Positions 1 to 6,868 of a DNA stretch of 12,289 bases are shown here, one piece after another; within the stretch, counting starts at the first letter, position 1; the number at the start of each line of letters is the position of its first letter. The stretch spans positions 1 through 12,289 of the forward strand of contig JBHLLP010000070.1 of assembly GCA_048885525.1 (NCBI GenBank). The letters run 5' to 3'. This DNA is from Candidatus Hermodarchaeota archaeon. GTDB taxonomy: Archaea; Asgardarchaeota; Lokiarchaeia; Sigyniarchaeales; SOKP01. The position numbers were made by a program, and so were the translations under genes. The notes beneath the pieces were generated by a model. That model worked only from the letters and a program-made list of their open reading frames with translations. It was not told the DNA's origin and made no database searches.

Positions 1-2
1 TT

Positions 3-75
3 AGCGGATTGGTGTAGAGGTCAAGCATTTGGGACTCTGAATCCCGAGACAGCGGTTCGAATCCGCTATCCGCTA
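3..75 (+). tRNA. tRNA-Gln, anticodon CTG (reads CAG), intronless, CCA not encoded
   Basis: Acceptor stem AGCGGAT(3-9)/ATCCGCT(68-74) with discriminator A75. D-arm GTGT/GCAT. Anticodon stem TGGGA/TCCCG with loop CT-CTG-AA (anticodon 37-39). T-arm AGCGG-TTCGAAT-CCGCT. The A1-U72 first pair is typical of archaeal tRNA-Gln. Confidence 0.97.
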
Positions 76-199
76 TTTTAATATTTCATTCTTGAAATTA
101 AAGGCATCAAATTAAATTTGAATAAACATTAAAATATCAACATATCTTATTTAATTATCAATTGGATATCATAAGAAAAAATATATAGTTCCAATAAAA

Positions 200-385
200 A
201 TGAGAGTAAACGAACATCTATTGCAAGGTTTAATATTAACATTCACAATTATAGCTTTAATTTCAATTTTTTTTGCGAATACAGTGCTAGCATGAGGAAA
301 TAGAATAACAAGTTTTGATATTGCATCTGGTGTAAGCTTTATAGTAATTGCAATTTTAATCGTAATATATATATTATCAGATTAA
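200..385 (+). CDS. Putative small membrane selenoprotein, 61 aa, in-frame TGA at 293-295 (codon 32); alternative reading is a pseudogene
   Basis: Manual translation from ATG200: MRVNEHLLQGLILTFTIIALISIFFANTVLA-(TGA)-GNRITSFDIASGVSFIVIAILIVIYILSD-TAA(383-385). There is a hydrophobic helix on each side of the TGA and a SECIS-like hairpin downstream on the same strand. The ORF track misses it because the TGA splits it. Confidence 0.55.
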
Positions 386-464
386 ATAAAGTTGCTTAGG
401 AATAGTTATTAAATGCTAACAATAGAAGTGGACTTTTAACCCTTTAAAATAAACAACTTTAATC

Positions 465-516
465 CAAGAAAGATGATTCTGATAAATAAATTATAGTTAT
501 CGGAGGATAAACCTTG
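465..516 (+). promoter_or_regulatory. Candidate eukaryote/Lokiarchaeia-type SECIS element in the 3' UTR
   Basis: ATGA at 473-476, then T. Helix II TCTGATAA(478-485)/TTATCGGA(497-504). AAA at 488-490, exactly 11 nt after ATGA. 3' core GGAT(505-508) gives the UGAU/GGAU non-Watson-Crick quartet. Helix I CAAG(465-468)/CTTG(513-516), or TCCAAG(463-468)/CTTGGA(524-529). Confidence 0.6.
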
Positions 517-538
517 CAAAGGACTTGGAAAAGTATGG

Positions 539-898
539 TTATTCTGTGCGTTTAATAATATGATAACCATATTTAGATTTCACAGGTTGTGAAATTTCAC
601 CTATTTTTAGGTTTGCACTTGTATTCCAAAATTCGGGGACCATATCACCCTTCGCAAATTCACCTAAATTACCTCCCCTTTTTTTACTTGGACATATGGA
701 GTTTTGTCTTGCTAACTGTTCAAAGTTATTCCCTGCTTTTAAATCTTCATAAAGCTCTTGTGCTTTACTAAACTTCTCAACTAAGATGTGACTTGCCTTT
801 ATTTTTCCACCACGTATAGGGTCTCCTCCTTGTTTTGAACCTCCTCCCTTTGATTGTGTTCCCTTCTGAAATCCTTTTCCATATTTATTTTTTCCCAT
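539..898 (-). CDS. ppiC: Parvulin (PpiC-type) peptidyl-prolyl cis-trans isomerase with a Lys/Gly-rich N-terminal extension
   Basis: Parvulin motifs ASHILV, FEQLARQNSICPS, GGNLGEF, MVPEF and GEISQPVKSKYGYHIIK. Confidence 0.95.
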   Translation of the reverse strand: MGKNKYGKGFQKGTQSKGGGSKQGGDPIRGGKIKASHILVEKFSKAQELYEDLKAGNNFEQLARQNSICPSKKRGGNLGEFAKGDMVPEFWNTSANLKIGEISQPVKSKYGYHIIKRTE

Positions 899-978
899 AA
901 TAACTTCTCTAAATTTGATTAACTTAAAAATATCATTTTACAATAAAAAATTAGCTATCTTGGAAATATTTAGAACCT

Positions 979-1398
979 TTAATTTACAATCAAATACCTG
1001 AAATTCTTTATTTCTTCAATACTGTTTATTTCTACTACAAGTTTTTGGAAATCGTGAAGACTTCCATCAAAAACCATGAAAGTTATAAAATTTGGATTAA
1101 TAAAATTTTGATTTTTACTAACAATTTGGTCTTTATACTCACTTTCAATTCTGTTTAATTTCTTCTGAACATTATAATCATTTGGAGCAACAATAATCAT
1201 ATTTCCAATTATGTTTTTTGTTAATGGGATTAGGTCACTTGAGCTATCTAGACTAGCGGAGATCTCTTCTGTTGACATTAACCTTAATAAAGCGTCTCTA
1301 ATTAGTTTCGATTTATTTTCATATTGATTTCTAGTAACTAGTTTATTAATGAATTTTTTAAGATTCTCATTGAGTGACACGGATATTATTGGGGACAT
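979..1398 (-). CDS. Ribbon-helix-helix (CopG/NikR-like) transcriptional regulator with a C-terminal ACT-like domain
   Basis: N-terminal IISVSLNENLKKFINKLV...YENKSKLIRDAL fits the RHH pattern. The C-terminal pattern (IIGNMIIV...KLNRIESEYKDQIVS...VFDGSLHDFQKLVVEINSIEEIK) and the 139-aa length parallel NikR. Confidence 0.82.
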   Translation of the reverse strand: MSPIISVSLNENLKKFINKLVTRNQYENKSKLIRDALLRLMSTEEISASLDSSSDLIPLTKNIIGNMIIVAPNDYNVQKKLNRIESEYKDQIVSKNQNFINPNFITFMVFDGSLHDFQKLVVEINSIEEIKNFRYLIVN

Positions 1399-6118: not shown

Positions 6119-6868
6119 TCATTTTCTTTTAACGAATTTTCTTTTTTTAGTTATATATATTATTATACTAAGAGTTAAAACACATATCAATCCAATCAAT
6201 GTAGGTATTACATAAATCGGTATAAATTCAAAAGCTATATCTATAATAACGACATTTTCATTAATATAGAGTTTATAAGAACTAAGAATTCCTTGATCGT
6301 TATAAATAGTAATAATTTTAATATCTTTTAAAGGAACTCCGGGTAATACTGCATTTTCTTTAATCTCAACATTTAAAGTAGGTAAAACTCTATTGTCTAC
6401 ATCGTACCACTCATTTAAACTTAAACTAGCCAAATAGTCCCCTATGGGAATTGGAAACCAAAATGGGACAAAAGAGGTATCATTTGAAAAATTCCATCCT
6501 TGAGGGTAGTTTTTTGGATTTGAAAAATAGATCATTTGAGAATCATTATCTTTATCGCCCCAAATTTTTCTACTAGTCCATATCCAAATGCTAAAATTTA
6601 TTTTTAAATATATTTCATTATATTCTGTATCTGTGATTTTCCATTTCATCTTTGTTCCTTTGCTTAGATTTTGAAATATTCCAGACGCATCCCAATTATT
6701 ACCAAAAATGTTATCCATCTCATTTTCATTACATAATTTACATTTCCATACTAATTCTTGATCTCTTTGGACTCCTATATTATAATTAATAGCAGCTACA
6801 TTTGAAATTAAATTGCTAACTAATAAGAGAAGAAGTGTAAACTTTAAAACAATTTTTTTCAGTTTCAC
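6119..6868 (-). CDS. Secreted, C-terminally membrane-anchored protein of unknown function
   Basis: Signal peptide MKLKKIVLKFTLLLLLVSNLISNVAA. C-terminal IPIYVIP, TM helix and KKRKFVKRK tail. Five N-X-S/T sequons and a CKLC motif. The GTG start overlaps the upstream TAG stop (TAGTG) and is preceded by GGAGGT. Confidence 0.85.
   Translation of the reverse strand: MKLKKIVLKFTLLLLLVSNLISNVAAINYNIGVQRDQELVWKCKLCNENEMDNIFGNNWDASGIFQNLSKGTKMKWKITDTEYNEIYLKINFSIWIWTSRKIWGDKDNDSQMIYFSNPKNYPQGWNFSNDTSFVPFWFPIPIGDYLASLSLNEWYDVDNRVLPTLNVEIKENAVLPGVPLKDIKIITIYNDQGILSSYKLYINENVVIIDIAFEFIPIYVIPTLIGLICVLTLSIIIYITKKRKFVKRK

Follow-up and report, generated by a model that had tools for sequence, protein, structure and literature searches.

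A probable family of membrane micro-selenoproteins accompanied by lokiSECIS elements in Promethearchaeia

Among Lokiarchaeota, the genes served by the lokiSECIS element include those for HdrA-VhuD, VhuU/FrhA and PrxL (Mariotti et al. 2016, PMC4989117; Huang, Xiao & Zhang 2024, PMC11227280). According to the 2016 report, the element is located just behind the coding sequence. Its 9-bp stem is preceded by AUGA and followed by GA (or AA), and its 11-nt loop begins A-rich and has a G, mostly preceded by an A, as last base; standard SECIS tools are stated to miss the Loki elements (PMC4989117). The published counts stand at seven selenoprotein families for the Asgard archaea and 11 for the archaea as a whole (PMC11227280, PMC13188914), and the listed archaeal families include SelD, FrhA/VhuU, HdrA, FrhD/VhuD, PrxL, AhpF-N, DsbA-like and FdhA. 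Every family listed in the 2016 and 2024 studies and in a 2026 review (PMC13188914) is either a soluble enzyme or thioredoxin-like. The 2024 Asgard survey was conducted by homology search to known families only (PMC11227280).

The locus described here is located in a 12,289-nt stretch of DNA (hereafter the window). We conclude, with a probability of roughly 0.88, that positions 200-385 (+) are a real gene encoding a 61-residue helical hairpin of an unlisted family, single-copy in this genome as judged from profile searches, in which UGA293 is decoded as selenocysteine (Sec) via tRNA-Sec/EFSec and a lokiSECIS at 464-528. The gene runs from ATG200 to the stop codon TAA383-385 and TGA 293-295 is its sole in-frame TGA; reading this codon as Sec reproduces exactly the open reading frame and the 61-residue peptide proposed in an earlier note on this DNA, and homologs share the same architecture. 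Like the HdrA-VhuD, VhuU/FrhA and PrxL genes of Lokiarchaeota, the micro-gene would depend on the same recoding system and on the same RNA element just past the stop: the canonical Lokiarchaeia-type SECIS in the 3' UTR (464-528) would direct the recoding of UGA293, and the tRNA-Sec/EFSec system of the organism would place Sec at residue 32. Unlike these systems, however, the predicted product is a membrane-integral micro-protein and not a soluble redox enzyme, and its Sec replaces no known catalytic or cluster Cys; nor was any Cys form found. The recoding mechanism is known; the protein family is new, as are its arrays, the location of its Sec and the absence of Cys forms.

The window starts with a tRNA-Gln(CUG) gene (2-76), and a TATA-like AT-rich box (176-188, +) is situated 12-24 nt 5' of the start codon of the micro-gene; this box, recognized in the sequence only, is possibly an archaeal promoter, with a leader that would be short or absent. 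On the other side, the gene of a parvulin-type PPIase (539-898, -) is convergent with the micro-gene, so close to it that its stop codon (539-541) lies directly against the SECIS at the latter's 3' flank. The N-terminal tail of this parvulin is Lys/Gly-rich. In at least 10 species an ortholog of the micro-gene has the gene for the parvulin as its neighbor, a synteny that the earlier note had suggested looking for, and about 10 of 80 parvulin loci have an abutting SECIS, with the family micro-ORF recognized in 8 of those. The adjacency to tRNA-Gln, which the note had also suggested looking for, is not conserved: the syntenic locus of genome G001 has no tRNA. The genomic context of the micro-gene provided no functional clue. 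Two other studies yielded contigs with exactly this sequence, TGA included, which confirms it at the DNA level; a search for RNA runs containing the locus returned none. As previously noted, TGA is not globally reassigned in this organism: a general change of its meaning is ruled out, since TGA terminates the neighboring 249-aa gene (6119-6868), and the long ORFs of the window are intact under table 11.

The host genome (3.58 Mb, 99% complete) harbors all the components of the Sec-decoding machinery that the earlier note had named as a check of its proposal. The tRNA-Sec gene (63.6 bits) lies directly beside the gene for SepSecS (486 bits), a gene encoding an EFSec-like GTPase is found 5 kb from tRNA-Sec, and a PSTK-like gene is present (E 3e-45). 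A SelD gene contains an in-frame TGA at the usual active-site position, with its own SECIS-like hairpin behind. The matches for tRNA-Sec, SepSecS and Sec-containing SelD are above cut-off; the genes resembling PSTK and EFSec also match strongly, but with scores that fall short of the curated cut-offs. Two adjacent SelD paralogs are encoded on contig 16 (19043-21411; L005 and L006), one with an in-frame TGA and one without. The relatives of the parvulin all originate from MAGs labeled Promethearchaeota or Promethearchaeia. Promethearchaeia is the current name of Lokiarchaeia, and the organism is a Promethearchaeia MAG, consistent with the Lokiarchaeia setting assumed beforehand.

The putative recoding signal at 464-528 (+) displays every lokiSECIS feature given in PMC4989117. 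A closing helix (464-468/524-528) and an internal loop (469-472) are followed by the AUGA (473-476), by a 9-bp stem (477-485/497-505) in which nine of nine positions are paired when G-U is counted, and by the GA (506-507); the 11-nt apical loop (486-496) has an A at four of its first five bases and ends in AG, and a mini-hairpin occupies 512-522. The AUGA begins at 473, 88 nt past TAA385 and 180 nt past the UGA. The earlier note had described an AUGA/GA hairpin about 80 nt past the stop, which stands, but its end coordinate of 516 is too short, because both the closing helix and the mini-hairpin belong to the element. This 3-bp mini-hairpin, which follows the 3' GA and precedes the closing helix, covaries and is present in every element aligned, those of HdrA/VhuD included; it makes the SECIS a three-way junction (508-528 in the window), an arrangement that we have not seen described in the available sections of PMC4989117.

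The element was recognized with a covariance model (R1) trained on only three elements, each of which follows an HdrA or HdrA-VhuD gene of the host genome; these genes contain two to three Sec codons in HdrA and two in VhuD. R1 matches the window at 458-537 with 48.8 bits (E 8e-7 genome-wide). Across the 3.58-Mb genome it yields six matches at E <= 0.1, namely the three training elements, the window element, a 56.2-bit element on contig 35 and one weak match. The window element is thus far beyond chance, since a model derived from the SECIS of other genes returns just six matches in the whole genome and this element is among them. In an alignment to R1 of 30 elements taken from loci of the family, 15 of the 18 base pairs were doubly changed, with such covariation in all three helices, and 89.5% of the cells were paired, against 36-56% with the partners slid. 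A search of Rfam with window positions 1-1200 (E <= 10) returned no SECIS family, in agreement with the remark on standard tools in the 2016 report (PMC4989117). The single-sequence fold of 386-540 was not significant (z = -0.71) and no better than that of shuffled sequences.

A search of 60 relatives with the single peptide gave weak matches only. One of these adjoined an 81%-identical parvulin gene and corresponded to a 63-residue ORF with a TGA at the same place, followed by the same hairpin as in the window with compensatory changes. Family profiles built from this first syntenic ORF, and then from 18 and 35 members, led to 41 matches, distributed over 27 of the 400 genomes that were sampled in the phylum; 35 of these matches have an in-frame TGA. 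The family comprises ~40 homologs in 25 other species, all from two genera that belong to a single family of Promethearchaeia, with 18 of the 53 other species in one genus and 7 of the 42 in the other; the only match outside these genera lies inside a 461-aa frame and is probably a false positive. In the alignment of 35 members the Sec column, with 33 TGA and two Gly, is the sole near-invariant one. The surrounding motif is [ILV]-x-[ASG]-Sec-Gly, with [ILV] at -3 in 25/35 members, [ASG] at -1 in 30/35 and the Gly in 29/35, and the helices are conserved both before and after the TGA. The 13 loci that were not part of the seed all have a TGA at the Sec column together with a same-strand R1 match, which starts about -15 to +65 nt from the stop codon, and a SECIS is found downstream of every TGA-bearing locus tested. 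The suggestion in the earlier note of a new family of tiny membrane selenoproteins is supported, nearly all the checks that it proposed having turned out favorable.

Among the alternatives, the one that survives best, itself very improbable, is that the UGA is read through as Trp, Cys, Arg or Gly by near-cognate decoding, with the hairpin acting as a read-through stimulator or as a kink-turn protein-binding site. Cys-containing homologs are present in most selenoprotein families and are a customary supporting criterion, and the failure to find them here speaks for this alternative: no Cys occurs at the Sec column in ~40 genomic members, nor in the 10 matches obtained from 1.84 billion representative proteins. 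The earlier note had expected TGA or Cys at codon 32; the first is found in 33/35 members, whereas a Cys homolog was not found. Also on the side of read-through are the Gly variants, seen in two aligned members, L033:1501-1692 (G003) and L170:528-722 (GGA read directly in the latter), both of which keep the downstream hairpin (33.9 and 38.8 bits, respectively), and apparently in a third case, the library protein P0008. Gly at this codon had been put forward beforehand as an observation against the proposal, but we do not consider these variants to refute it, because GGA is one base from TGA, the two tested copies keep their SECIS and such copies are a small minority. They may represent recent losses of Sec without a Cys intermediate. 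It had also been anticipated that only TGA-bearing copies would retain the SECIS; this is consistent with three Sec-less small paralogs, two without any SECIS (L084, L180) and one with a remnant of 20.7 bits (L179), but not with the two Gly variants.

Three observations argue against non-Sec read-through. R1 cannot tell the hairpin from the HdrA/VhuD elements, whose UGAs replace a conserved Cys; the full Sec machinery is encoded in the genome; and the element occurs at six genomic sites, three of them behind HdrA/HdrA-VhuD genes, the others being the window, another UGA-containing ORF and one weak match. Of the ten proteins found by the profile search of the 1.84 billion representative sequences, six have a 'W' at the Sec column, two have Gly and two lack the motif. 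True Trp homologs are ruled out for the four 'W' proteins checked (P0001, P0004, P0006 and P0007, from loci L184, L185, L186 and L169), which all stem from short contigs on which TGA was called under code 4. Asgard annotation either misses the genes of this family or calls Trp under code 4.

Even less probable, in our opinion, is that UGA293 is a genuine stop codon terminating a 31-residue one-helix peptide, with the remainder untranslated or separately translated. TGA does serve as a stop elsewhere in the window and gene callers treat UGA293 in this way, but the 28-45 codons past the TGA form an open frame whose amino-acid sequence is conserved in ~35 copies, in DNA of 29% G+C. Nor is pN/pS higher past the TGA than before it (0.54 versus 0.61, and lower in the closest groups), although these values lie no more than moderately under 1 and, because synonymous sites are close to saturated, are only mildly informative. 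Judged from these alignments, constraint is no weaker past the TGA than ahead of it, in line with the coding-type conservation on both sides that the earlier note had regarded as supportive. Separate translation fits poorly with the lack, in most copies and in that of the window, of an ATG among the codons just past the TGA, and the occurrence of a SECIS with every TGA-bearing locus tested also argues against a simple stop. The homologs end where the window ORF ends, and the reading on past TAA385 that would have suggested a decayed gene was not seen. Finally, that the ORF is a chance frame or decayed remnant in an AT-rich spacer, followed by a fortuitous hairpin, could draw on the weakness of the first single-peptide search and on a single-sequence fold no better than shuffles, but is effectively refuted by the comparative data, namely conservation across 25 other species, synteny, covariation of the SECIS and the genome-wide rarity of the element. 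As judged from sequence comparison, decoding of the internal UGA as selenocysteine is almost certain.

Expansion of the family in some species has given rise to tandem arrays with common SECIS elements. Such arrays of diverged paralogs are found in four species, with two to eight copies per array, the highest number being reached in one species (L037/L062 on contig 17 of G007, L034 in G029, L032 in G066 and L044 in G064). Each paralog has one TGA, within the motif Ala-Sec-Gly, Ser-Sec-Asn, Pro-Sec-Thr or Val-Sec-Ala. The arrays hold several SECIS elements, some of which are apparently common to two or three cistrons; this is reminiscent of HdrA-VhuD, where one SECIS likewise serves several cistrons. 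In two species of the second genus, three predicted Sec codons occur within six residues (Sec-Gly-Sec-Gly-Gly-Sec; L072:1507-1719, -, and L183:954-1121, +).

The AlphaFold2 model computed from the 35-row alignment (mean pLDDT 88.2) predicts two helices, residues 5-29 and 37-60, connected by a tight 7-residue loop that holds Sec32; together with the hydropathy profile, it assigns transmembrane helix 1 to positions 212-286 (+) and transmembrane helix 2 to positions 308-379 (+), on either side of the UGA at 293-295. Lys and Arg residues together average 2.4 for the N-tail, 0.7 for the loop and 2.2 for the C-tail. Because these residues are concentrated in both tails and rare in the loop, the positive-inside rule would place both termini in the cytoplasm and Sec32, with its short loop, on the outer side of the membrane. 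We suggest, as a best guess of rather low probability, that the protein could be a membrane-anchored selenol acting outside the cell, in a redox or soft-metal-binding function, that is, in exchange with, or scavenging of, disulfides, polysulfides, peroxides or soft metals. Such a selenol would have to be resolved intermolecularly, by a second copy, a paralog or a small thiol, because about half of the members are devoid of any Cys.

The nearest likeness in eukaryotes is to SELENOK and SELENOS, single-pass ER proteins with a Sec near the C-terminus on the cytosolic side. Like these, the micro-protein is tiny, membrane-anchored and mostly unstructured outside the membrane, with a single Sec and no thioredoxin fold. 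Unlike them, it has two predicted helices with the Sec in the connecting loop, presumably facing outward, and no sequence similarity was detected. The context of the Sec is also reminiscent of the lipobox of bacterial lipoproteins, in which a short signal peptide ends with [LVI][ASTVI][GAS]-Cys. The N-terminus is basic and is followed by a hydrophobic stretch, with [ILV] at -3, [ASG] at -1, Sec where the Cys would be, and then Gly. However, the hydrophobic stretch of about 22-25 residues, with the Sec at 25-38, is longer than in typical lipoprotein signals, and a membrane helix would also make up the 'mature' part. We take this resemblance solely as a lead for a possible processing or modification of the protein. 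A more doubtful extension, which we regard as unlikely, is that these are Sec-only surface micro-proteins in which Cys is unacceptable, the motif being a processing or modification site that yields a ~30-residue peptide with an N-terminal or lipid-modified Sec, or the paralogs forming diselenide-linked hetero-oligomers; if true, this would be a selenium surface chemistry new to any organism.

The family has no detectable homology to the 11 archaeal selenoprotein families of PMC13188914, and searches of Pfam and NCBIfam returned hydrophobic noise only, with no family match. It is not mentioned in PMC4989117, PMC11227280 or PMC13188914, nor was it encountered in further full-text literature searches. 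The words 'membrane' and 'transmembrane' are absent from PMC4989117 and PMC11227280, as are 'transmembrane' and 'membrane protein' from PMC13188914.

Other UGA-containing frames were observed outside the window in the same genome. On contig 35, an ORF at 26270-26536 (+; region to 26598) would encode a one-helix membrane protein with a Gly run followed by Sec-Ala-Cys; a second TGA is its likely stop and the 56.2-bit R1 match overlaps its end. From its sequence, this ORF is a candidate for another unlisted small membrane selenoprotein: like the members of the window family it is a tiny membrane ORF with a UGA and a lokiSECIS, but it has one helix and a different motif. On contig 1, a 163-codon frame (79278-79840, +) contains two adjacent TGA codons (Sec-Sec) and has a lokiSECIS-like hairpin 6 nt past its stop (34.6 bits; L059:566-639). 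A weak R1 match on contig 40 (22975-23056, +; 29.2 bits, E 0.04) showed no convincing upstream ORF on a quick look.

This family shows that a search outward from the SECIS reveals membrane micro-proteins whose frames are truncated at the UGA by gene callers. The family is unusual in having no Cys counterpart and a Sec at what is predicted to be the outer face of the membrane, and the ~30 new covarying lokiSECIS elements provide material for modeling the transition from archaeal to eukaryotic SECIS. In some species, the arrays would add seven or more selenoprotein genes, approximately doubling the known selenoproteome.
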